A stretch of 64,000 bases of DNA from Candidatus Calditenuis fumarioli. GTDB lineage: Archaea; Thermoproteota; Nitrososphaeria_A; Caldarchaeales; Calditenuaceae. Numbering within the stretch: the stretch's first letter is position 1; each line of letters begins with the position of its first letter. Position numbers and translations under genes: made by a program. Location: positions 704,001 to 768,000 of the forward strand of contig JANVYR010000001.1 in assembly GCA_030059665.1 (NCBI GenBank), written 5' to 3'. The notes beneath the pieces were generated by a model. The model was not told the DNA's origin, made no database searches, and saw only the letters and a list, made by a program, of their open reading frames with translations. Shown here in pieces: positions 41,799-54,013 of the stretch.

Positions 41799-41831
41799 GC
41801 CCCGGTAGCTCAGCCTGGTCAGAGCACCGGC
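41799..41831 (+). pseudogene. 5' half of a tRNA-Thr-like gene (acceptor 5' strand, D arm, 5' anticodon stem); no 3' half nearby
   Basis: GCCCCGG-TA-GCTC-AGCCTGGTCA-GAGC-A-CCGGC. It shares GCCCCGGTAGCTCAG and CACCGGC with the tRNA at 53916; no T-arm or 3' acceptor strand was found downstream. Confidence 0.8.
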
Positions 41832-42050
41832 AGAGTCTCAATGATGCGTATGGACTCGAGGGGATTCAGGATCGCCTTTTCCGTTTCGTGAGACTTTACT
41901 TAGCATAACTGCGTGAACCGTGACTCATGTAGTTCGTTCCTCTCCAGAGGCCTATATTTATGAGGCCGGTTCCGCCCTCAATTCCAGCTCATTAATGTTG
42001 CTTTTTATGACTTGAGGGGCGTTCAAGAACATATTTAAGGTAAACTCCTC

Positions 42051-42420
42051 ACCCCCTCTCCCGAGGCCACGCCTCTATCTCCTCCTCTGTTGGTAACAAT
42101 TCTGGTGGGATCTTGATGCCTGATGCACTCTCATACTTGCTGAGGTCGGCCAAAAAATGGATAACCACCTGCTACGCTGATCGGCTCCTTGTGAACCTTG
42201 CGGAAACCCCACTCCTCAAGGGCCCTTACTTCCCTCTCCCTCCCTTCCTCGGCCTTGGGATTCAAGAACGTATCAAGGATGAACTGCTTATGATATGCCA
42301 TACCCCTTATACCCCTCTACTTCATCAACTGCTCAAGGATGGGTATCGCCTGCATCTCTCCTGTCTGAACCAAAACCTCCTTCAGGAGCTTGATGTGCTC
42401 GGAATCAATCGATCGTGATG
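42051..42420 (-). pseudogene. Decayed protein-coding relics
   Basis: Minus-strand protein-like fragments SIDSEHIKLLKEVL...EQLMK*, MAYHKQFILDTFLNPK...GFRKVHKEPIS and VVIHFLADLSKYESASGIKIPPELLP..., broken by stops and a frameshift. Confidence 0.4.
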
Positions 42421-42913
42421 TTAGCTGTCGTCAGGACTCGGTTCCTGAAGGAACGGTCGAGGTGTTTGCCAGGTTGGTGGGGAAGGAAGGCAAAACCTCC
42501 TCGTGGTGGAGGACTAGGCTGGGGACGAGTACAGACTGGCGAACCGCCTAGTGTATGGAGACGTTAGTGTCTTCTCCCTTAACCCAAGTCGTCTTCAAGA
42601 CGCCTCTCCAGATCAACTTACGGCTACGCATCTACCTAGAGGTTCCAGATAGGTGGGACACGTGGCCTCGGCGCTGGTGAGGCCGCAAGGAAACTCCATT
42701 TACAGATGACTTTGTAGTCTACTCCTACATTATAAAGGAACATGGAAGCTGATAAAAGGTCATCGACCTTAAAACCTCATCAGACATTTTGAATTACTTC
42801 TTAGATTGTATGCGGGAACTAACCATATGATGAACTAGTCGTTTTGAGACTGATTTTAACTGGTTTTAACTGGGTTTGATGTCAGAGTTTGAGGTCGACT
42901 CTCACTTATCGTA

Positions 42914-43882
42914 TTATTCCGCGTCTGACATCATAGATTCTTTAAATTTATTCATACATTCTTCGCAACAGAAATAATATGTCATTCCTCCATGAAGCAG
43001 CACATAAGGGGTGTCTTTGGTCACGAACATCCCACAAACGGGATCACGATAATTTTCTACATTTGTATCGTAATGCCACTTTTTATGTGTTAGCTCATTG
43101 TATCGGGTTTCACCAGGAATATTCCTTATAAGTGATATGACCTCTGCTACTATGCTAACTGCAATTTCCTCCAAATTTGATGCATTTATATCTAGTCCAG
43201 CGGGACATTTGACGATGTTGAGGGTCTCAGGACTGTACCCCTCCCTCTCCAAATATTGTCTTAGAGCTTCCCATCTCCTTCTGCTAGCCACCAATAATAT
43301 ATTTCTAAACCCGTTCTTCAGGGCGAACCGTATCGCGTCCTCGTCATAGCGATTCATAGTTGCGACAATAATGATATCGCCAAGCCTCTTATATTCGCCC
43401 TGTATCTTATTCATTACTTGGTCATATGTTATTTTTGAAACTTTATATCCAATAAAATTGAAAAGCTGCTCTAGTTTGCTGGTCAGCTCGTTCTCACCCG
43501 CTATCGTCACCACTGCAGGCTTAATCGGTTCTAAGAGGAAGATCGCTCCGCCCGAACTAATACAGTAATTGACATGAACTGATGTATCAAGCTGAGGCTT
43601 CTCGGTGCCCGCTATAATAGACCTTGAGCGTTGATTGGGGCCAAAAAACACCAGCCTGCTACGCCCCGATTCTAAGCATTTTACGGCCTCGCTAGCTAGC
43701 CATTCGACGATGCAAGGCCCTCCCAGCCAGCCCTCAATCTCCCCGGTGGGGTGCACTATGGCCTTTGTGCCGGGCTCTACGCTTATGAAGGGCGAGGTTT
43801 CGAGCACGGTCACGAGCACGAAACTCCGTCCTTCCTTGATGAGTTCGGTCGCCCTCTGTAAGATTTGCTCCATCAAAGTCAT
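42914..43882 (-). CDS. XdhC/CoxF-family molybdoenzyme maturation factor with C-terminal YHS domain
   Basis: G...GWLGGPC, C.SGG...LLEP, VATM...DE.A, ASRRR, CPAGLDI.A...EEIA.SI.AE; C-terminal DPVCGM...YYFCCEECM..F; ATG at 43882. Confidence 0.88.
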   Translation of the reverse strand: MTLMEQILQRATELIKEGRSFVLVTVLETSPFISVEPGTKAIVHPTGEIEGWLGGPCIVEWLASEAVKCLESGRSRLVFFGPNQRSRSIIAGTEKPQLDTSVHVNYCISSGGAIFLLEPIKPAVVTIAGENELTSKLEQLFNFIGYKVSKITYDQVMNKIQGEYKRLGDIIIVATMNRYDEDAIRFALKNGFRNILLVASRRRWEALRQYLEREGYSPETLNIVKCPAGLDINASNLEEIAVSIVAEVISLIRNIPGETRYNELTHKKWHYDTNVENYRDPVCGMFVTKDTPYVLLHGGMTYYFCCEECMNKFKESMMSDAE

Positions 43883-46221
43883 AGCTCTGAAACCACGCCC
43901 TTTTCCTTCAAGATGCTGTAGACGCGCCACGGATATAGAGGCATCCCTATCTTGGTCACGCCTAAGTGGCTCAACGCGTCTACTACTGCGTTCTCAAAGG
44001 CTGCTGGTGATCCGACAGTTGGTGATTCGGCCACACCCTTTGCTCCCAACGGATGGTGGGGCGATGGTGTCACAGTGCGGTACGTCTCCCACCGAGGCGT
44101 CTCCACTGCCGTAGGTATAAGGTAGTCCATGAAGGTGTTGCCATAGATGTTTCCCTGCTCATCGTACCTTATCTCTTCTAGGAAGGCAGTCCCGAAGCCC
44201 ATGGTCAGAGCACCATGAATTTGTCCCTCCACGATCATGGGATTGATGACGTTGCCGCAGTCGTCCACAGCCACGAACCGTCTGACTTTCACCTCTCCTG
44301 TACCTCTGTCTATATCTACGACGCAGATATAAGCGCCAAATGGGAACGTCATATTTGGAGGATCATAATAGGTTACCGCTTCCAGACCCGGCTCTAGACC
44401 AGGCGGAGGATTGGTGTAGGCCGCGAAAGCCACGTCCTGTATCGTCACGGATTTCTCGGGAGCCTCCTTCACGTAGAAGCGGCCCTTCTCGAAGACTATG
44501 TCCTCCTCCCTTACCTCGAGGAGGTGGGCCGCTATCTTTTTGGCCTTAGCAATAATTTTATCAGCAGTCACCGCCGCTGCAGCCCCAGCAGTTGGTGTGC
44601 TCCTGCTAGCGTAAGTTCCTAGACCGTAGGGTGCTGTGTCGGTATCACCCTCCTCTACTGTAATGTCCTCCTCGGGTATACCTAATTTCTCTGCTAGAAT
44701 CTGCGCGAACGTCGTCTCGTGACCCTGACCCTGTGACTTGGTCCCGAACCGAGCTATGACCTTGCCAGTCGGGTGAATCCTCACCTCGCAGCTTTCGAAC
44801 ATTTTTATACCGAGAATGTCGAAGATCTTCGAGGGGCCAGCCCCTACAATCTCGACGAATGTGCTTATGCCTATTCCCATCAATTCTCCCCGCTTTCTCT
44901 TCTCCTCTTGCTCTTTTCTAAGCTGCTCATAGTCAATTTTCTCCATTGCAAGCCGCAGAGCTCTCTCGTAGTCTCCGCTGTCATATTCCCATCCGAATAC
45001 ACTGGTATATGGGAATTCCTCCTTCTTGATGAAATTCTTCAGCCTCAGCTCCGCTGGATCCATACCCAATTTGTGGGCCAAAATGTCAATCATCCGCTCG
45101 ATGACGTAGGCTGCTTCCGTTACCCTGAACGAGCACCTATACGCTATGCCACCTGGTGGTTTGTTCGTATGGACACCTGTGACCTCTACATAACCAGCCT
45201 TCCACTTGTAACAACCCGAGACTATGGTGAACAGCCCGAACGGGAACTTGGATGGTGTGGCGTCGCCAAAGAATGCTCCGTGATCGCTTAGCACGCTCAT
45301 CCTTAATGCTAGAAGGGTTCCGTCCTTTTTCGCAGCGACCTCAGCAGTGATGTAAGCGTCCCTTGCAAAGGCAGTGCTGCTTAGGTTCTCGGTTCGCGTC
45401 TCGATCCACTTCACAGGCCTCTCAGTCATGATGGAGGCAAAGGCTGCAACAACGTAACCAGGGTATACGTAGACTTTGCCGCCGAACCCTCCTCCAATGT
45501 CTGGAGCTATTATTCTAATTTTATGTTCAGGGATCTTCGTGAACAGTGAGGCAACTGTCCTGACAGCATGAGGTGCCTGGGTTGTCATCCAAAGCGTGAG
45601 TTTCCCTGTAGGCGGATCGTAATGAGCCACGCAACCACATGTTTCCATATGAGCGACGTGTATCCTATGATAGTAGAAGTTCTCTTTCACAATCACGTCT
45701 GCTTCTTGGAAATACCTATCTGTGAGGTCCTTATCTCCAGCAGACCACGTAAATATCTTGTTAGTTCCCTTGTCCGGCCTGACGAGTGGAGCATCTGGCT
45801 CCAAGGCCCTTTGCGGTGTCATAACAGGTTCTAGAGGCTCGTATTCAACCTCGACTAGTTCGGCAGCATCCTCTGCTATATAGCGGTCTTCGGCGACTAC
45901 CGCAGCAACCTCTTGATATGGATAATACACTTTGTCTAATGCTAGAACCGGTTGGCGATCATTCATTAAGGTAGGCATCATGCTTAGTCCTGCGGCCTGC
46001 AAGTCCTTTCCAGTTATTACCGCAACAACTCCGGGTACCTTTAATGCCCTCTCGACGTCAATCCTTTTGATCTTAGCATGTGCGTATGGACTCCTGATCA
46101 GCTTGACGTGGAGCATGTTGGGGAGCTTGATGTCGTCCACATATGTCCCCTTACCTCTGATGAAACGCGCGTCCTCCTTCCTCTTTAATGGGTGGCCCAT
46201 CCCATGGATTGTGGCTGTCAT
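43879..46221 (-). CDS. coxL: Aerobic Mo-Cu carbon monoxide dehydrogenase large subunit, form I
   Basis: Active-site motif AYRCSFR; RKED.RF..GKG.YVDD, GGGFGGK, QGQGHET, YG.GTY.SRS, GAKGVAE; ATG at 46221. Confidence 0.93.
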
Positions 46222-46745
46222 CTCCTCACCACCAATTCGAGGGAACGAACTCCCATCCGATTGAGCTTTTCGGCGGCGTACTGTATAGCTTCGACGATCT
46301 TGACGTAGCCTGTGCACCTGCAGAGATTCCCTGCGATCATCTGCCTTATCTCGTCTTCGGTAGGCATTGGATTTTGATGTAGTAGCCAAGCAGATTGCAT
46401 CAACAGTCCAGGCGTACAGTACCCACACTGAAGACCGTGTTTCTCCCAAAAGCCTTCTTGAACCGGATGTAGCCTACCATCCCTTTCAAGCCCTTCGACT
46501 GTGTATATCTCTGATCCATCGAGCTGCACCGCGAAGAGGGTACAACTCTTGACGGTTACGAAATCCTCGGACCACGGGAATCTCACTAGGATCGTGCATG
46601 CGCCACAGTTAGATGTGTCGCAGCCTATGTGCGTGCCTGTCAAGTTCAGCAGCTCCCTGATCATGTGTACCGCCAATAGCCGCGACTCGACGTCTAGTTC
46701 CTTCTTTACTCCGTTTACAACCACACTTATCTTATGTCTTCCCAT
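46218..46745 (-). CDS. coxS: CO dehydrogenase small [2Fe-2S] subunit
   Basis: [28 protein letters not shown]. Confidence 0.95.
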
Positions 46746-46752
46746 CTTTACA

Positions 46753-47622
46753 TCACCTAACCAATCTCTCGTAGACCGTTTTGATGCCTCTGAGGAGGAG
46801 CACTCTCATTACGTCTCTCTTGTACCAGTCCGGGCCCCTTAAGTCGGAGACGGGATTGACCTTCATTTTGTCAAACGCATTCTTAGCCGAGGTCAGCAAG
46901 TTCTCTAAGCCCCTTTTATCGATTATCGATTCCTCTATTTCCTCCGCAGGCAGAGGTGTAGGTCCCGCGTTTGTGAAAGCCACTCCTGCACGCGTGACCC
47001 TATTATCATCATCAACGGTCAGTTGGACCGCCACCGCCGCTATCGCGTAATCGCCCGTGCGCCTCTCAAACTTCAGGTATGTCCCTCCCGAGTATCCGTC
47101 CCAATGTGGGACGTTCACCTCCACGAGCACCTCGTCTGGTCGCAATTCTGTTGTAAAGGGTCCCTTGTAGAAGTCCTTTGCCGGAATCTCCCGTGTGCCC
47201 CTCTTGCTCTTCACAACATATTTTGATTTCAGACTGATGAAAACTGCCGGTAAATCATTGCCTGGATCGCCGTGGGCTGCGTTACCTCCGACGGTGCCCA
47301 TGTTTCTCACTTGAGGGTCTGCGACCTGTCTAGAGGCCGCGCGCAGAATGTCATATTGGGATGGGAACTTAGTTCGTTCCAATTGCGCAATTCTTACCAA
47401 TGCACCGATCTTTAATGAACCGTCTTCCATGTTCATGTAATTTAGGCCTTTGACCCGATTGATGTCAACGACCAGTGCAGGCCGGGCAATCCTCAGCTTC
47501 ATTAAGGGTATCAAGCTCTGTCCCCCGGCCAGTATCTTGGCCTCTTCGCCCCTCTCATCTAGTAACTTTAGGACGTCATCTAAAGAGTTTGCAGGAATGT
47601 ATTCGAATTGTGGTGGGTACAT
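46753..47622 (-). CDS. coxM: CO dehydrogenase medium FAD subunit
   Basis: [38 protein letters not shown]...YK. Confidence 0.93.
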
Positions 47623-47699
47623 TTCGACACCTTACCCCAATACCTTCTATTAAACCTATCCTTACACATGCCGCGCGATTTGATTACAGTTGGCTGATC

Positions 47700-48010
47700 A
47701 CCTATGAGGGCTTGAAACTCGTCCTCGACGTGCACATGGACCGCAAGTTCCTCGACCATCCCATTGGACTCCAGCTCCCACTAGTCCTCGGCCGTGGGGA
47801 ACCCGACGAGGGCGAAGACTAGCTCCGTCCTGCCGTCCTCCGGAATGATGTGGACGCCAGCGCACGTGGTGACGAGCCCTGATTGAGGAGAGCGTGGGGT
47901 TGGACCACGCTGGTAGGCCGTGGTCGCCGCCGATGACCAGCAGGTCGCACTCGCGGTCCACGAGTTCCGCGATGGTCGTCCGGTTCTTCGCCACGCGTTA
48001 CCATCATCTA
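47700..48010 (-). pseudogene. Fragmented ORF relic upstream of the cox operon
   Basis: Protein-like pieces in shifting frames (RTTIAELVDRECDLLVIGGDHG; VHIIPEDGRTELVFALVGFP*); family not identified. Confidence 0.3.
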
Positions 48011-48339
48011 CCTCCGTGGAACGATCGTTAATCAGGGGAATCATTAGCGTGATCTTCGTGTCCGCCGAGGCGGCGAAGCTCCTAGGCCTAATCGAGTTTT
48101 CGGCGCGAAGTCGCAGGCAATGGAGGCAACCTAGACTCTCCAGCGGTGCGGATCTAGCCGAGCATGATCCGCGTCGCCCTTGAACTAACTAGCCATGAGT
48201 TCTACGAGCCGGGTTGCCACCTCCTCGGAAAGTCCGAATGACAGCCAGAGGTCACAGAAGAGAAAAGTGCTGTGCCAGAAACCAAGAGAAGGCGTTCCAG
48301 ACTGGCTTCCGTTATTTCCAAGATGTCTGAGGTTGTCGT

Positions 48340-48699
48340 TCACCTCCTGAGAGTCTTACCGTGAACGATCTTGGCCATCAAAGTAATGACTCCCGCGACG
48401 AGGGCCATCACGAAATCTGTTGTGAACAGGACCTCAGAAGGCGCTCTGATGAGTACCTCATTGTTGCCGACCCTAAGGACGTAATTTAGCGCGAACGCTC
48501 CGGCTGTCGGGACGCTCAGCCCCATAGGCCTGACGACCTGAGTCCCTGCAATTATTCCCACGAGGAAGACCAGCGGTACCGTGAGCCCCCTCAGGCTCAT
48601 CAACGACCCGGACCACTTCTTCCCGGCAAAAATCGACCCGATTAGGGTCGTCGAGGCCGCGAGCAGCAGGAAAAGGAAGAGAAGGGCCCGCGGCTTCAT
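48340..48699 (-). CDS. Small membrane protein (about 3 TM, 119 aa)
   Basis: MKPRALLFLFLLLAASTTLIG..., LTVPLVFLVGIIAG, FVMALVAGVITLMA; ATG at 48699. Confidence 0.65.
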   Translation of the reverse strand: MKPRALLFLFLLLAASTTLIGSIFAGKKWSGSLMSLRGLTVPLVFLVGIIAGTQVVRPMGLSVPTAGAFALNYVLRVGNNEVLIRAPSEVLFTTDFVMALVAGVITLMAKIVHGKTLRR

Positions 48700-48711
48700 G
48701 GAAGCCCACCT

Positions 48712-49240
48712 CACGTGACCTGCCGGCCGACCTCCGCGGCGCGCTTCGCCTCGAACGGCACGAAGGTCAGAACGGCCCTCGCCCACAAGGGGTCCCCGAT
48801 CTCGGCGAACCTCTGTCCCCTCCCTCTCCGCCTTCAGCACGGCCTTCCGGACCGTTTTCACGGAGAGGTCCACGTTTCAACCGCCCACTCCTGCGCCCCT
48901 CTGTCCATCCCAGGACCTCGAGCATCCAGCTCCTCAGGTCCTCCTCGCTCTCTATCTGCTCGGTGGAGAGCTGGCCCAGTATATGCCCGCCGAGCGTCAG
49001 CCCCAGGGTCAGACCCTTCCCCCACGAGGGCCGTAGCGTTGACCTGCAAAGGCAGATCCGACTATCCCTCCATCACTGTCCTGTCCGCGGCCTCGGAAAG
49101 GGAGACCCCTGTCTTGACGTATCCCAAATCAGATCAAAGCAACTCTGATGCTATCGACTGGACGGTCCTGCGACCGTCTGTCTTGATCCAGTAACAAAGA
49201 CCATGTTGCAGACGTCTGCATTCACTTTCCTCTCATCGCC
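48712..49240 (-). pseudogene. Decayed gene with HTH-like segment
   Basis: Frames can be joined as CYWIKTDGRRTVQSIASELL*SDLG..., GLTLGGHILGQLSTEQIESEEDLRSWMLEVLGW, DLSVKTVRKAVLKAEREG and FAEIGDPLWARAVLTFVPF...*; this requires at least two stops and several frameshifts. Confidence 0.4.
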
Positions 49241-49284
49241 CTGAGATGGGGAGTGAGGCTATCACATTTAATCCTCGTGGCACT

Positions 49285-51201
49285 TCATGGTTGAAGCCCG
49301 CATCGTTGCAGACGACCCTCATCTACACGCTCGGTCCCCGCGCGCCAGACCACCTTTACCGCCCTTCCTGTCCTAGGCGTCGTAACGACGGCCTCTTCCC
49401 ATCCTAGCGTAGCCAATGCATCCCTCTGCGCGTCGTTTAGCATCATCCTCTCCGAGACGACCTCCAGATCGTCGGCACCCGTCAGCCTCTTGCAGATCAC
49501 CGTCCCAGGAAGGGAGACGGCGTCGTCGGATATCCTCGACGGCCTCTGGTCTACTATCCAGACCGACTCTCCGAACTTCCTCACCTCCCTGAGCATCTGC
49601 TCTACGATAGTAGTCCTCCCGGTCTCGGTCCTGGGGAGCAGGTTGTGCGCCTCCTCGCAGACGACGACGTGGATCTTGCTTCCCCTGCCCGACCTCCTCC
49701 TCTGCTCGAAGATCGCCTTGAGAACCAGCCAAGAGACGACGTTCCTCTCCCGCTCAGAGCTGAGGGACGAAAGGTCTATCACCGCGTCCTCCGTAAGCAG
49801 CTCGCCGATGCCGATTGCACCTTCCCCTCCTTCTATGAACCTCGATGCACTTCCGTCCGCAAGCTCGGAGATCCTAGAATAAAGCGAGAAGAGCGCGTCC
49901 CTTGCCCTCCTCGAGTCCAGGAATCCCCTGATCAGTTCTGAACCGCTTCCCTCGAGGTACCGGACGAAGAGCGATGGCCTGAAGTCTTTGAACTCGGCCC
50001 TGAACCTCCTGTATGCTGTCCTGAAGACGGCCGACTGGAGCGGGCCGAACTCCTCGGGCCAGGCCATGGAGAATATGTCCGAAAGGAACACCGACTCCTC
50101 TTCAGGATCTGACTCAGCGGTAAGGAGCTTTAGACCCTCCACATCGCCTCCGGGCCCCACGACCACGTCGGCATTCTCCCTGTACTCTCCGTGCCTGTCC
50201 AGAACGAGGTACCTGATCCCGAGCGACCTGAGCCTCGTCAACAGGGCCTTGACCAGGGAGGTCTTGCCCGATCCGGGGGAGCCGAAGACCGCCAGGGAGT
50301 GAGGGAGGTGCTCGATGGGCACTGAGACCGGAACCCTTCCACCTGGTCCGTGAGAGAACCCTATCAGGAGACCTCTGCCTCCGGCCTCGCCCCTCATCGG
50401 ACGGTGGAAGACCTCTCTTCTGACCACGGCATAGCTCAGGGATGGCGAGAGAACAGGACCCGTCCTGAGGAGCACAGCTAGCTCTTTGGTGGTCAGGTAA
50501 TGCTCCCTGGGCCTTCTGGACCTCTCCAGCTCCGCCATCAGATAGGATCGGGCCAGAGGCTTCAGAACCCTCACGGCGGGGCCGTCGTGAGCTAGGACCT
50601 CGACAGATACGGCCCAGCCCTCCTCGAGCAGCTCGCTGGCCCTCCAGAGCTCCCTCCTCATCCTCTCCATCCTAGGGAGAAGCTCGGGCCTGACCTCCTC
50701 CCTTCCCTCGGACCTCCCTCCTTCCCTCTCGGTCACGATGGACCTGATGGAAGCCTCTGCTTTGCTGAGGTCCTCGGAGACCTCCCTGAGATGAGCCGAG
50801 ATCCTGAACCTGTCCAGGAATCCCCTGGCCGGCCTGGCGGAGATCACCAGGTCGTACTCGAGTCCGGCGGAGGACGTGGTCCTGAGGAAACCCTCTACGT
50901 CAGCCGAATGCTGCCACCCGTCGAGGAGGCGCTTAATTCCGAGTGACGTGCGGTCAGCGTCACCGAGCTGGAACGTCCCTCCAGGGCTGCATGCTCCGGT
51001 CATGGACCGCAGCAGCCTCACCACATCCCCCGGTTCCATGCCCTCTATACCGATCAGCAGGGAGAAGTTCGCCTTCCTGACCGAGTAGACCGTGACGAGC
51101 TTCCTGTTCATGGCCCAGCACGCCCTAAGTATCCTAGACCTCTCCTCGGTCGAGAGCTCGGGCAAAGAGACCGAGACGAGCTCAGGGACCGAGATATGCA
51201 A
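49285..51201 (-). CDS. HerA/VirB4/FtsK-clade (DUF87-like) ATPase with about 290-aa N-terminal extension
   Basis: Walker A FGSPGSGKT, VLDRHGEY, Walker B VVVCEEAH, LREVRKFG, DQRPS. Confidence 0.88.
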   Translation of the reverse strand: MHISVPELVSVSLPELSTEERSRILRACWAMNRKLVTVYSVRKANFSLLIGIEGMEPGDVVRLLRSMTGACSPGGTFQLGDADRTSLGIKRLLDGWQHSADVEGFLRTTSSAGLEYDLVISARPARGFLDRFRISAHLREVSEDLSKAEASIRSIVTEREGGRSEGREEVRPELLPRMERMRRELWRASELLEEGWAVSVEVLAHDGPAVRVLKPLARSYLMAELERSRRPREHYLTTKELAVLLRTGPVLSPSLSYAVVRREVFHRPMRGEAGGRGLLIGFSHGPGGRVPVSVPIEHLPHSLAVFGSPGSGKTSLVKALLTRLRSLGIRYLVLDRHGEYRENADVVVGPGGDVEGLKLLTAESDPEEESVFLSDIFSMAWPEEFGPLQSAVFRTAYRRFRAEFKDFRPSLFVRYLEGSGSELIRGFLDSRRARDALFSLYSRISELADGSASRFIEGGEGAIGIGELLTEDAVIDLSSLSSERERNVVSWLVLKAIFEQRRRSGRGSKIHVVVCEEAHNLLPRTETGRTTIVEQMLREVRKFGESVWIVDQRPSRISDDAVSLPGTVICKRLTGADDLEVVSERMMLNDAQRDALATLGWEEAVVTTPRTGRAVKVVWRAGTERVDEGRLQRCGLQP

Positions 51202-51817
51202 CCAATCTCGCCCTCCTGCCGTTCAGGCTGACCAGCTCCTCGGCGACCAGGCCCTCCTCCTCGAGCTCCCTCACCCACTTCCTGACCGTCGGCAGCGAGA
51301 GGCCTGCAACCCTAGCCAGCTCGGACTTCGTCACGCTTCCCCTCTCCCTCAGGACCCGGAGTATCCTGTCCCTGGGGCCCTCGATGGCGTCAGTCCTCGA
51401 ATGGACGTAGTTCAGGCCTCCGTCGGTCCAGAGATCCTTTCCCCCTGATGGCGTTACCGCCTCTTCCCGGCCCATCAGTCCTGAGATGGCGCCTGCGGCC
51501 ATACGCGCTAAAGCGAGGGGGCCGATGCCGGCGAACCTCCGGAGGAGCGCCAGGGCGGTAGCCGCTATAGCAGCAGCGCCCACCATGGGGTTCTCCACGG
51601 AGAGGACCGCGGCCGAGAGGGTCGCCGTGACCAGGAGACCGGTCTTAAGGACCCTCAGACTCCCGGTCAGGAGAGCTGAGAGCAGGGTGAGATAGAGTCC
51701 CATCGAGAGGACCAGGGATGAGGTCCCCATCCACTCGGTGATGCCGTAGACCGCGATGGCCGGGATCGCCGGCGCGAGCAGCTTGACCGTTGCCGAGCCG
51801 GTGCCCATCCAGGTCAA
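51182..51817 (-). CDS. Membrane-anchored winged-helix protein (N-terminal multi-TM, C-terminal wHTH)
   Basis: About 110 hydrophobic residues, then RDRILRVLRERGSVTKSELARVAGLSLPTVRKWVRELEEEGLV. Confidence 0.8.
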   Translation of the reverse strand: MTWMGTGSATVKLLAPAIPAIAVYGITEWMGTSSLVLSMGLYLTLLSALLTGSLRVLKTGLLVTATLSAAVLSVENPMVGAAAIAATALALLRRFAGIGPLALARMAAGAISGLMGREEAVTPSGGKDLWTDGGLNYVHSRTDAIEGPRDRILRVLRERGSVTKSELARVAGLSLPTVRKWVRELEEEGLVAEELVSLNGRRARLVAYLGP

Positions 51818-51979
51818 CGGAGGACGTACCCGCTTATCCGAATGCGACCCGAAACGGAATTTCTGGGCTTCTCCAGGCGGGGGAGGGGCTGGACCCCGGA
51901 CCGGGTTGATGGGAAAGGAAGGATGATAACTCGGTCTTAGCTGGGTCAGACCGGAGACGGGAGCGTCGGTGAGCGGAAC

Positions 51980-52693
51980 TTGTGTGACGATCCATACGAG
52001 GAGTACGGGTTGGACGCTCTGGGCGGGCTCCTCGTCCTGCTGATACTGCTCCTTGCGATATTGGTCCTCATCGATGCCATAGTGAAGGAGATCACAAAGC
52101 TCCTCATGAGCGTGAAGGCGATGCTGGACGCTCTGGTCGCGACGCTCATCTCGGCCTTTATGGTGGTGGTTATCGGGGCGCTTAACGCATTCGTCTATTT
52201 ACTCGTCGCCGTTGCAACCCTGATACTCGGCGTTCAGCTGTACAAGCGCTCCGACAAAATAATCGGGGCGCTCTCGTCCTTAGCACGCTGGATAGCGGGC
52301 CATATACATTACCGGATGATCGAGCCCCTCCTCGCGATCAGGGAGCTCAGGAGTACGCTGGATAGGATGTCCGGTGACACTTCCTGTCTGATGGTTCTCA
52401 TGGAGCTCTTAAATGGTCCGGCTGGAAGCATCAGCGAGCTCGGTGAAAGGGTCGGTAAAAGGGCCCTCAGCACCGTTCACACCCACATACGGCACCTGGT
52501 GGATTGTGGTCTGGTGGAGAGGGTCGAAGAGAGGATAACGGGCAGGAGGGGCTCTTCGGCCGAGGTCAGGGTGGGGCTGGCGAGGAGGTTCGACAGATGG
52601 ACCGCGAGGCTCTACCTCAGATGGAGGATAGGAAGGCTGCTGAAAGCCGGTGAAAGGGTTGCTGAAAGGCAAGGTTTGAGTAGCTTTCACTGA
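51980..52693 (+). CDS. Membrane-anchored ArsR-like winged-helix protein (N-terminal TM, C-terminal wHTH)
   Basis: LGGLLVLLILLLAILVLI and ATLISAFMVVVIGALNAFVYLLVAVATLILGV, then SISELGERVGKRALSTVHTHIRHLVDCGLVERVE. Confidence 0.78.
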   Translation: MCDDPYEEYGLDALGGLLVLLILLLAILVLIDAIVKEITKLLMSVKAMLDALVATLISAFMVVVIGALNAFVYLLVAVATLILGVQLYKRSDKIIGALSSLARWIAGHIHYRMIEPLLAIRELRSTLDRMSGDTSCLMVLMELLNGPAGSISELGERVGKRALSTVHTHIRHLVDCGLVERVEERITGRRGSSAEVRVGLARRFDRWTARLYLRWRIGRLLKAGERVAERQGLSSFH

Positions 52694-52911
52694 CAGCTGA
52701 TTAGCGAGGAAGGCTGTACGGCCGCCAACGGTCGGATGGGATATAGTGGTACCTTGGTGAGAGAATGAGTGATGGGAAGTTTCAGGACCCCGGGGTTGAC
52801 CCGGAAGCGGTCGCGGCCCCGGGCCCGGGGGATAAGGCCGCGCCCCCTGATGGCGTTTTTGGGCGAAGCGCCCCCATCGGGGAATCTCTCGGGAGGGGAG
52901 GGGTTGAGAGA

Positions 52912-53694
52912 TTGTCCAGAAAGTTCTACGCCGACGTCCACTGGAGGAAGGACCACGTGGTCGTAGCAGACGGGATCGTTAAGAGGTTCAGGAAGCTCGG
53001 CGACATACCCGCACAGGCCGGAGACGAGCTGTACGTGGATGCGATGCTACCGAGCAGATTTCAGGAGTTCGAGGAGTTGCTGAACAGAGGTGTCCGGGTA
53101 TTCTACCTGAGGAGGACCGACGTCTTGGAGAAGTACAGGGAGAAGAAGAGCGATGAGGACGACGCCAGGGCGCTGATGAGAATACCACAACACCTCTTCA
53201 GGGAGCTCATAGGAAAGGAGCTGGAGGTCAGAAGGCTTCTGCACAAATACACGACGACGAAATCGCACCTGGAACTTGTAAAGCAACTGTCACGCGAGGC
53301 GGATGATGAGGAGACCAGGGCACACTACAGACATCTCATCAATCACCTGAGGAGGCGGAAATACAAACTGGCTAAAGAGATAGACGCGTTGGCTAGAAAC
53401 TTCCTTCCGGTCCAACAGATAGCATGGAAACTTGGAATCATTTCAAACAATTGCCTCTTCGGCAGGGTAGCTCTGGTTCAGCTGCTGTTGTACGTGGACT
53501 TCAGCTTAGGGCTGAGAAAGATATTGACCTATACCGGTAACTACTATCCTAACGACGGAAGGTACAGCAGAACTCTAAAGGATGCAACCGAATCGCTGAC
53601 AATCAGCGTCAAGAGAAGGCAGAAGATCAAGGGAAAAGAGGTGAGAGAGGTCCTGAAAACCATAAAGAACGTGCTGAAGGCGATGAAGAGGTGA
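52912..53694 (+). mobile_element. Compact IS110-family-like (DEDD RuvC-type) recombinase/transposase
   Basis: FYADVH (first D), ELYVDAM (D at the usual E position), KSDEDDARAL (KTDxxDA motif), helical linker, short C-terminal RKILTYTG...GRYSRTLK; probable TTG start at 52912. Confidence 0.6.
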
Positions 53695-53698
53695 GAAC

Positions 53699-53811
53699 GG
53701 GGGAAAGAGCCGGATGGGGACCTGGGCAATAGAGCACCGAATGCAGACCTACCGAAAGGGGGGATGAAGCAATTACCAAGCCAATGCTCTAGGTTCTCAT
53801 TCCGGCTCCCC
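53699..53811 (+). ncRNA. Candidate structured RNA downstream of the IS110-like gene
   Basis: Nested stems GAGCCGGA (53707-14)/TCCGGCTC (53801-08), ACCT/AGGT and TAGAGCA (53730-36)/TGCTCTA (53785-91), with an internal CC-GAAA-GG hairpin. Confidence 0.4.
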
Positions 53812-53884
53812 TAGACGGCATACGGCTGGCGATCTAACCCCTCCCCTCTCTTTTTCAATGCCCTCTTCTCACGTTAATTACAGG

Positions 53885-53892
53885 TTTAAATG
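53885..53892 (+). promoter_or_regulatory. TATA box of tRNA-Thr
   Basis: GTTTAAAT about 25-30 nt upstream of the mature 5' end. Confidence 0.6.
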
Positions 53893-53915
53893 TAGAGTTC
53901 ACGGAATTCCGCTTA

Positions 53916-54013
53916 GCCCCGGTAGCTCAGGTGGCGGAGAATTGGGAGAACCCCCAATCTGAATCACCGGCTTGGTAAGCCGGGGGTCGCGGGTTCAAGT
54001 CCCGCCCGGGGCT
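53916..54013 (+). tRNA. tRNA-Thr(GGT) with a 25-nt intron in the D stem (about position 24/25; 53940-53964)
   Basis: Acceptor GCCCCGG/CCGGGGC, anticodon arm CCGGC-TTGGTAA-GCCGG, T arm GCGGG-TTCAAGT-CCCGC. The D stem GCTC/GAGC forms only after removing AATTGGGAGAACCCCCAATCTGAAT. Confidence 0.93.

Follow-up and report, generated by a model that had tools for sequence, protein, structure and literature searches.

What does an ATPase of HerA/VirB4 type do when it is encoded next to membrane proteins that end in a DNA-binding domain? This question is raised by a locus in the genome of the archaeon Candidatus Calditenuis fumarioli (Thermoproteota), within a stretch of 64,000 nucleotides (positions 704,001 to 768,000 of contig JANVYR010000001.1, assembly GCA_030059665.1) that was analysed as a whole and is referred to here as the window; all positions without a contig prefix are window positions. 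A first-pass annotation of the DNA had singled out an ATPase gene and two divergent genes, each encoding transmembrane (TM) helices followed by a domain of the winged helix-turn-helix type (wHTH), as a candidate new system. We find that the ATPase is consistently encoded with a membrane partner of this kind in distantly related archaea, that its family is phylogenetically separate, and that the module is carried on mobile DNA. We tentatively interpret the module, with a probability of roughly 0.45, as a split translocase resembling FtsK, TraB and the Ced proteins, anchored in the membrane, directed by DNA sequence and serving the element on which it resides.

An ATPase encoded with membrane-bound winged-helix proteins

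The module consists of three genes and the intergenic spacer between the divergent pair:

49285-51201, minus strand: ATPase of 638 amino acids, with FGSPGSGKT, VVCEEAH and DQRPS in the translation and intact Walker motifs; family-specific N-terminal domain at about residues 1-285, motor domain at about residues 290-620
51182-51817, minus strand: first TM-wHTH partner, 211 amino acids; overlaps the ATPase start by 20 nucleotides
51980-52693, plus strand, divergent: second TM-wHTH partner, 237 amino acids; four predicted TM helices, then the wHTH, then a C-terminal helix
51818-51979: spacer of 162 nucleotides between the divergent wHTH genes, delimited by position only

The open reading frame (ORF) coordinates, the motifs, the overlap and the divergent gene given in the first-pass annotation were confirmed from the sequence. 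An independent metagenome contig of the same organism, with genes called by the Joint Genome Institute (JGI), has three ORFs identical to those of the window. The ATPase, present in one copy in this genome, matches the Pfam DUF87/HerA central domain (9e-12) and TrwB_AAD_bind (8e-8), and its Walker A, DRHGEY, CEEAH and DQRP alignment columns are invariant among eight family members. Both partners have the layout originally described, with TM segments preceding a wHTH: hydropathy analysis places hydrophobic segments in the N-terminal halves of the 211- and 237-residue proteins and none in the ATPase, and Pfam detects HTH_24 in the former (2e-9, residues 151-191) and, weakly, MarR_2/HVO_A0114 in the latter (residues 136-189). 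The 211-residue protein aligns with partners from nine related loci through common wHTH motifs, and the 237-residue protein retains the C-terminal helix of the family alignment. Likeness between the two is confined to the wHTH (E 0.006). An ESM Atlas feature search with the 237-residue protein returned generic small wHTH regulators, and the same kind of search with the N-terminal domain of the ATPase returned unnamed clusters only.

The spacer is presumed to be a shared promoter/operator region. No 11-bp iterons, palindromes, or direct or inverted repeats were found in the window spacer and its flanks, and scans for sigma-70 promoters and terminators gave fewer matches than in shuffled controls.

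The pairing of ATPase and membrane partner is conserved

Linkage between the ATPase and TM-wHTH genes, which the first-pass annotation had put forward as a check of its proposal, is borne out by the related loci. A membrane partner adjoins the family ATPase in all 16 loci with readable flanks and bears the family wHTH in 14 of them; it is placed upstream and co-directional, divergent, downstream and convergent, or, at one of the 16 loci, fused to the ATPase N-terminus. Seven loci (L028, L029, L030, L031, L033, L034 and L049) encode, directly upstream on the same strand, a protein of 247-289 amino acids with three to five N-terminal TM helices. Six of these seven were put through Pfam, and a C-terminal wHTH was found in all those scanned except that of L034. 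A partner of the same kind is divergently encoded in L001, L032 and L104/L105. The partner in L071 is a convergent TM-wHTH protein of 191 amino acids whose gene overlaps the 3' end of the ATPase gene, and a gene for only a wHTH (107 amino acids) occupies the convergent 3' position in L070. At L069 and L073 a protein with four TM helices and no wHTH overlaps or abuts the ATPase start. The fusion protein P0011, encoded at L068, comprises 1018 amino acids in one open frame, in the order TM segments, wHTH, N-terminal domain and ATPase, and its wHTH is recognized by the family hidden Markov model (E 1.3e-13) and by Pfam HTH_20/HTH_24.

The pairing spans metagenome-assembled genomes (MAGs) of Korarchaeia-like archaea, Brockarchaeota and other Thermoproteota. 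Since it recurs in every related locus examined, the arrangement is not due to chance, and since it survives changes of lineage and of orientation as well as fusion, we take it as established that the ATPase and its TM-wHTH partner work together. The two proteins presumably bind each other; a complex prediction for the ATPase and the 211-residue partner scored 0.00, which is no verdict and is counted neither way. The proposal of two divergent wHTH partners holds for the window but is not general, as a second TM-wHTH gene is found at one other locus only (L034). A weaker relative of the partner, P0161 (184 amino acids), is divergently encoded beside a canonical NurA-HerA-Mre11-Rad50 operon in other archaea (L101:5001-5555 and L103:1524-2078).

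The ATPase family is a separate branch of the VirB4/Ced lineage

The best NCBIfam model for the window ATPase is CedD (NF053655), at 93.8 bits against a cut-off of 600 bits. With the same model the relatives score 41-117 bits, true Sulfolobaceae CedD proteins 676-732 bits, and a HerA-like gene of 584 amino acids elsewhere in this genome, where separate HerA-like genes are present, 83 bits. The curated HerA models (NF040937, NF040819 and NF042943) reach 48-58 bits against cut-offs of 800-970 bits, the VirB4 model TIGR00929 16.4 bits against 643 bits, and Pfam FtsK_SpoIIIE (PF01580) 12.6 bits against 24 bits; the NCBIfam models for CedB and antiphage HerA are far under their cut-offs. Among PADLOC models, those for defence-system HerA proteins (up to 84 bits) and mad8 match the motor domain.

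A phylogenetic tree of 60 sequences was constructed by a quick IQ-TREE search under a simple model from 13 family members, Sulfolobaceae CedD, CedB and HerA, CedD-like proteins and the top representative matches, with VirB4 and TedB left out. All 13 family members form one clade (SH-like approximate likelihood ratio test, SH-aLRT, 99), apart from CedD (99), CedB (100) and HerA (100). The first-pass annotation had held that its proposal would fail if the ATPase fell within the characterized CedB or VirB4 clades; it lies outside those of CedB, CedD and HerA, and VirB4 is set apart by model score rather than in the tree. The sister clade (support 91) contains proteins of about 910-960 amino acids that lack the family wHTH but have four to five TM helices fused at the N-terminus.

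The best match to the CedB model in this genome, which is 91% complete, reaches 17 bits against a cut-off of 700 bits, and no CedD is detectable there; CedA was not searched for. Pfam and NCBIfam searches of the neighbours of the window module and of its relatives found no type IV secretion system (T4SS) genes (VirB2, VirB3, VirB6, VirB8, coupling protein or relaxase), and no Ced, Ted or T4SS partner, pilin or channel gene was detected beside any family member. The layout is thus unlike that of Ced or T4SS loci, as originally suggested. Domain searches also agree with the earlier observation that no NurA, Mre11/Rad50, Sir2 or relaxase gene is adjacent to the module, and there is no NurA, Sir2 or DUF4297 partner in the window neighbours or at the related loci. 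The family is a new branch of the broad VirB4/Ced lineage.

The predicted fold is of VirB4/HerA type

An AlphaFold2 model of the window ATPase, built from eight sequences, had a predicted local distance difference test score (pLDDT) of 55, and less than 50 in the N-terminal domain; a model of the relative at L029, built from 20 sequences with a pLDDT of 83.6, was used instead. Foldseek placed full-length TrwK/VirB4 first among matches to the L029 model (E 8e-20), followed by HerA. In VIA-align comparisons the L029 motor domain gave Z scores of 30-32 against DndH-C, VirB4 and HerA and of 26 against TrwB; HerA structures set against the L029 motor gave Z 25-29, and FtsK gave Z 17.5. Full-length VirB4 (TrwK) was the only structure to align over residues 33-731, with 577 residues aligned, Z 23 and a root-mean-square deviation (rmsd) of 18.6 Å, and in whole-chain comparison HerA chains align only from residues 335-383 of the model onwards. 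L029 is confidently modelled as a HerA/VirB4-type motor.

The module is carried on an island integrated at a tRNA-Thr gene

A feature of the locus that goes beyond the first-pass annotation is its mobile context: the module lies on an island integrated at a tRNA gene, and its relatives adjoin TnpB transposon genes. It forms the tRNA-proximal (right) end of a 12.1-kb island (41800-54013) with the following borders:

41800-41832, plus strand: orphan, intron-less 5' half of tRNA-Thr(GGU), left border of the island, identified from the sequence
53916-54013, plus strand: complete tRNA-Thr(GGU), right border, with an insert in the D-loop region and an island-borne 5' half, identified by ARAGORN and Rfam

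A genome of the same genus, G315, has an intact tRNA directly after the homologous left flank; the 5' half of this tRNA matches 41799-41831 and the 3' half 53977-54013. The halves of this tRNA thus correspond to both window pieces, and the homologous site in G315 is without the 12-kb insert. The G315 sequence after the tRNA is unlike the window past 54013, and contig L002 diverges from the window exactly at 54013. Another strain is represented by contig L003, on which the module and the element-borne 5' half recur but adjoin the 3' half of tRNA-Thr(UGU) with its flank; this tRNA gene is intact on contig C2 of this genome. Comparison of this junction with the window shows that module-bearing DNA has entered junctions with two different tRNA-Thr genes. 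A search of the ORFs at the island ends and of the internal gap revealed no integrase domain.

Read junctions from 41819-41828 to 53965-53986 were considered as empty sites and rejected; their sides span 21-27 nucleotides with foreign letters between them, and we read them as tRNAs of other organisms. The insert in the element-borne tRNA-Thr 5' half is about 25 nucleotides long and lies in the D-loop region, which is not a canonical place for an intron, and the tRNA version at L003:2121-2236 has a second insert past the anticodon. The island cargo at 42914-47622 is a cox/xanthine-dehydrogenase-type L/S/M gene set, which is accompanied by an XdhC-like maturation gene whose product ends in a fused YHS/TRASH metal-binding domain.

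Inverted repeats and TnpB genes flank the partner gene in relatives

Inverted repeats of 24-92 nucleotides enclose the partner gene in the largest subclade, and their arms are complementary (100% over 86 nucleotides in L034 and 96% over 55 nucleotides in L028). A TATA-like box marks the outer edge of each arm, and four to five phased tandem repeats of about 11 bp (GATGnnAYAYG-like) lie inside. The phased repeats are the obvious candidates for wHTH binding sites beside the ATPase gene. The cassettes and the TnpB genes next to them are located as follows:

L028:2176-3149: wHTH cassette with inverted repeats
L034:10036-10999: wHTH cassette with inverted repeats
L104:1769-2711: wHTH cassette with inverted repeats, as also at other related loci
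L028:967-1983: TnpB gene (OrfB_IS605/Cas12f TNB)
L029:5496-6539: TnpB gene, same type
L031:4992-6077: TnpB gene, same type
L034:11158-12411: TnpB gene, same type
L104:2860-4161: TnpB gene, same type
L106:3634-3900: TnpB remnant
L108:3798-4154: TnpB remnant

The flanks are collinear and the cassette is flipped between L032 and L029 and between L104 and L034, the ATPase genes of the latter pair being 96% identical. These two independent comparisons show that inversion between the arms has been repeated and recent. A programmed on/off switch was set aside, as the arms are mirror images that each carry a TATA-like box, and a flip should leave the regulatory geometry unchanged. We regard the inversion as a by-product of the repeats, for which homologous recombination between the arms would suffice.

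Both flipped lineages have TnpB beyond the wHTH cassette, a consistent placement, with some 190 conserved nucleotides on the 5' side of the TnpB gene. The block of TnpB, partner and ATPase genes has been duplicated as a unit within one genome, and remnants resembling miniature inverted-repeat transposable elements (MITEs) hold the TnpB 3' end and one repeat arm. The module may thus be carried, or else regulated, by a TnpB transposon. The window copy has no repeats, cassette or TnpB, which places these features outside the module core. Other genes in the neighbourhoods of some relatives include AbiEii, toxin-antitoxin genes, HEPN_AbiV, SocA and AAA_15/21.

The family is rare and found only in hot-spring Thermoproteota

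Two close relatives of the ATPase were found in a database of 5.8 billion proteins. The ATPase family amounts to about a dozen 50%-identity clusters among 1.84 billion representatives, beyond which scores are generically HerA/CedD-like. A search with the partner alignment yielded six proteins in 5.8 billion, and the partner family is therefore as rare as that of the ATPase. In a scan of 185,579 species genomes, intact or decayed copies were detected in only about ten hot-spring Thermoproteota MAGs, assigned to Brockarchaeota or to unclassified Thermoproteota, with some labelled Nitrososphaerota; the Brockarchaeota genomes contain several copies, some of them decayed. The module was not found in three genomes of the same genus, which gave ordinary HerA-level matches only, and no relative of the ATPase was found among IMG/VR viral contigs with the patterns used. 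The window stretch itself recurs, with about 99% identity, in metagenomes that at least a dozen studies obtained from hot springs.

Neighbouring genes are not part of the module

Two further genes lie next to the module in the window:

48340-48873, minus strand: small membrane-protein gene, probably the 119-amino-acid version at 48340-48699; a neighbour only
52765-53694: ORF of 309 amino acids between the 237-residue protein gene and the tRNA; a multi-copy insertion sequence (IS), not part of the module

The first-pass annotation had noted the small TM gene downstream, within the stretch of the candidate system. It is not upheld as part of the system, having no counterpart in nine related loci; it lies 411 nucleotides downstream of the ATPase gene, has no Pfam, NCBIfam or PADLOC match, and is more likely the 119-amino-acid ORF called on contig L002. 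A second copy, 88% identical, lies beside an IS240-type transposase (L002:859-1163), and the gene seems to move independently of the module. The 309-residue ORF has no Pfam match and has further copies in the genome with 87%, 66% and 34% identity. It is missing from contig L003, and likewise from the contigs of three further runs of hot-spring sequencing, where 52645 is joined to 53680; its absence there and its multiple copies indicate a recent IS insertion.

Proposed function and alternative explanations

We propose that the ATPase and its TM-wHTH protein or proteins form one two-part machine. The polytopic membrane protein, with its wHTH presumably in the cytoplasm, would keep a ring-shaped ATPase from the VirB4/CedB/CedD/HerA lineage close to the membrane, and the wHTH would provide the ring with a DNA-binding handle. 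Two polypeptides would in this way rebuild the FtsK/SpoIIIE/TraB layout of membrane anchor, motor and winged-helix DNA reader. Most likely, the module would grip specific DNA at the membrane and pump it on behalf of the mobile DNA that carries it, whether by transfer to another cell, by uptake from one, or by processing DNA that belongs to the element itself. A further probable role of the wHTH is autoregulation of the operon.

Several observations are consistent with a membrane-anchored translocase. A membrane partner is conserved beside the ATPase and in one case fused to it, and the relative modelled from L029 has a VirB4-like fold. The sister clade has TM helices fused to its motor, and the nearest characterized relatives, CedD and CedB, are membrane-bound DNA-import ATPases. 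The phased 11-bp repeats beside the ATPase gene in relatives are candidate counterparts of the clt locus and its TraB recognition sequences (TRS) beside traB. The catalytic motifs are invariant, and the module resides on a tRNA-Thr island, with a second tRNA-Thr gene involved in another strain. Other observations weigh against a DNA pump. Neither the window nor the relatives' loci link the module to a channel-sized partner, a pilin or a relaxase, which leaves no account of how DNA would cross the envelope. VirB4 is mainly an assembly ATPase and not a DNA pump, and the likeness of the N-terminal domain to VirB4 comes from whole-chain alignments with an rmsd of about 18 Å. The TM-only partners at L069 and L073 lack a wHTH, and the DNA-binding domain may accordingly be accessory. 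In relatives a repeat arm accompanies MITE-like TnpB remnants as well, and the repeats may therefore belong to the TnpB transposon and not to the pump. The window's own module has neither iterons nor inverted repeats.

A more specific form of the translocase proposal, possible but unlikely in our estimation, is a minimal archaeal DNA-transfer device: a lone VirB4-lineage motor docked on a membrane-bound reader of a short repeated DNA signal, carried by tRNA islands and TnpB transposons, which would move or take up double-stranded DNA without a pilus or a full T4SS, much as Streptomyces TraB and clt do.

The partners could instead be membrane-tethered one-component regulators that sense membrane or envelope signals, control the operon and perhaps anchor the ATPase, as VirB3 anchors VirB4; the ATPase would then be of VirB4-like assembly type and would power the assembly or secretion of a substrate other than DNA. 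The wHTH domains are indeed of the MarR, TrmB and ArsR regulator types, the repeat arrays of relatives flank the wHTH gene next to TATA-like boxes, as operators might, two loci have TM-only partners, and the protein matched over the whole chain is VirB4, an assembly ATPase that VirB3 tethers. However, a regulator covalently fused to a motor would be odd for a pure transcription factor, four to five phased iterons exceed the needs of a simple operator, and no gene for a secreted substrate, pilin or channel is linked at any locus; we consider this account unlikely. A defence or exclusion module carried by mobile elements, with a HerA-type motor that senses or engages invading viral or plasmid DNA at the membrane and the membrane protein as a membrane-damaging effector or as a block to entry, would agree with the PADLOC matches of defence HerA models (up to 84 bits) and mad8 to the motor, with the AbiEii, toxin-antitoxin, HEPN_AbiV, SocA and AAA_15/21 genes near some relatives, and with the patchy and mobile distribution. 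Those PADLOC matches, though, cover the generic motor domain only and antiphage HerA cut-offs are not reached; moreover, HerA structures leave the N-terminal domain unmatched in whole-chain alignments, and none of the known effectors, such as a nuclease, Sir2 or DUF4297, is linked. Defence or exclusion seems quite unlikely to us.

Plasmid centromeres such as parC of R1 resemble repeat sets that flank a DNA-binding gene, and the two inverted sets of four to five phased 11-bp repeats on either side of the wHTH gene, on a module carried by mobile DNA, could be read in the same way: the tethered wHTH would be a centromere-binding protein on iterons and the ATPase a segregation or resolution motor that maintains an episomal element. 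Partition ATPases are of ParA, actin or tubulin type and not of VirB4/HerA type, the window copy has no repeats, and neither a replication gene nor a circular form was seen, which makes this explanation very unlikely. That there is no system at all, and that the genes are neighbours by chance or through shared junk mobile DNA, we find hardly credible: many copies are decayed and the family is very small, but the pairing persists over distant lineages, changes of orientation and a fusion, and the catalytic residues are conserved.

Comparison with known systems

Movement of DNA between archaeal cells is known only for the Ced and Ted systems and a few conjugative plasmids. The module described here is proposed to offer a two-protein, membrane-anchored DNA motor with a built-in DNA reader, and the natural fusion shows that both parts belong together. 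It should be amenable to biochemical work and cryo-EM, and it is a candidate for the mobility or maintenance function of those small integrative elements of archaea that have no recognizable conjugation genes. Even if a regulator with an assembly ATPase, or a defence function, were to prove true instead, the TM-wHTH protein would still be a new type of partner for the VirB4/HerA lineage. Full-text literature searches for the combination led only to general treatments of HerA/FtsK in archaeal mobile elements and to two papers on CedD, and no account of a VirB4/HerA-lineage ATPase with a TM-wHTH partner was found.

CedB and CedD are reported to be membrane-bound DNA-import ATPases with VirB4-like N-terminal domains, and some CedD orthologues have no TM segment of their own (PMC11868833, PMC11823120). 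CedD/TedD is the best-scoring named family for the window motor domain and belongs to the same HerA/VirB4 lineage. However, CedD has an anchor and a motor only, whereas the anchor of the window module is a separate protein that also bears a winged-helix DNA-binding domain. The window family forms a separate clade, no CedB was found in this genome, and the module resides on mobile DNA, whereas CedD is a chromosomal gene of the DNA-damage regulon.

VirB4 (TrwK of R388), the top Foldseek match, aligns from the N-terminal domain through the motor, although its sequence score is negligible and no other T4SS genes are present. VirB3 is the small membrane tether of VirB4, encoded upstream of virB4 or fused to it. 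The window family resembles this pair in having a small membrane protein that is encoded upstream and sometimes fused N-terminally, but its tether has three to five TM helices and a DNA-binding domain. HerA is similar in the structure of its motor domain (Z 25-29) and in Pfam DUF87; unlike HerA, the window module has no NurA, Sir2 or DUF4297 partner, its family lies outside the HerA clade, and whole-chain alignments of HerA, which has an N-terminal HAS-barrel, do not extend over the N-terminal domain of the family.

FtsK, SpoIIIE and TraB combine a membrane anchor and a winged helix with a ring motor that belongs to the FtsK-HerA superfamily, as the module would. Their winged helix reads short repeated motifs: FtsK-orienting polar sequences (KOPS), SpoIIIE recognition sequences (SRS) and TRS/clt, respectively. 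Streptomyces TraB alone moves double-stranded plasmid DNA between cells, and clt/TRS repeats adjoin traB. The window motor, by contrast, lies on the HerA/VirB4 branch (the L029 model gives Z 17.5 against FtsK and about 30 against VirB4 and HerA), its wHTH is on the anchor and not at the C-terminus of the motor, and the parts are usually encoded by separate genes; a faint FtsK_gamma match, 16 bits against a cut-off of 30.6, occurs in the partner from L001 only. Set beside these systems, the module looks like a rare but well-defined kin of the membrane-anchored machines of the FtsK-HerA superfamily, and like a kind of pump that has not yet been described.

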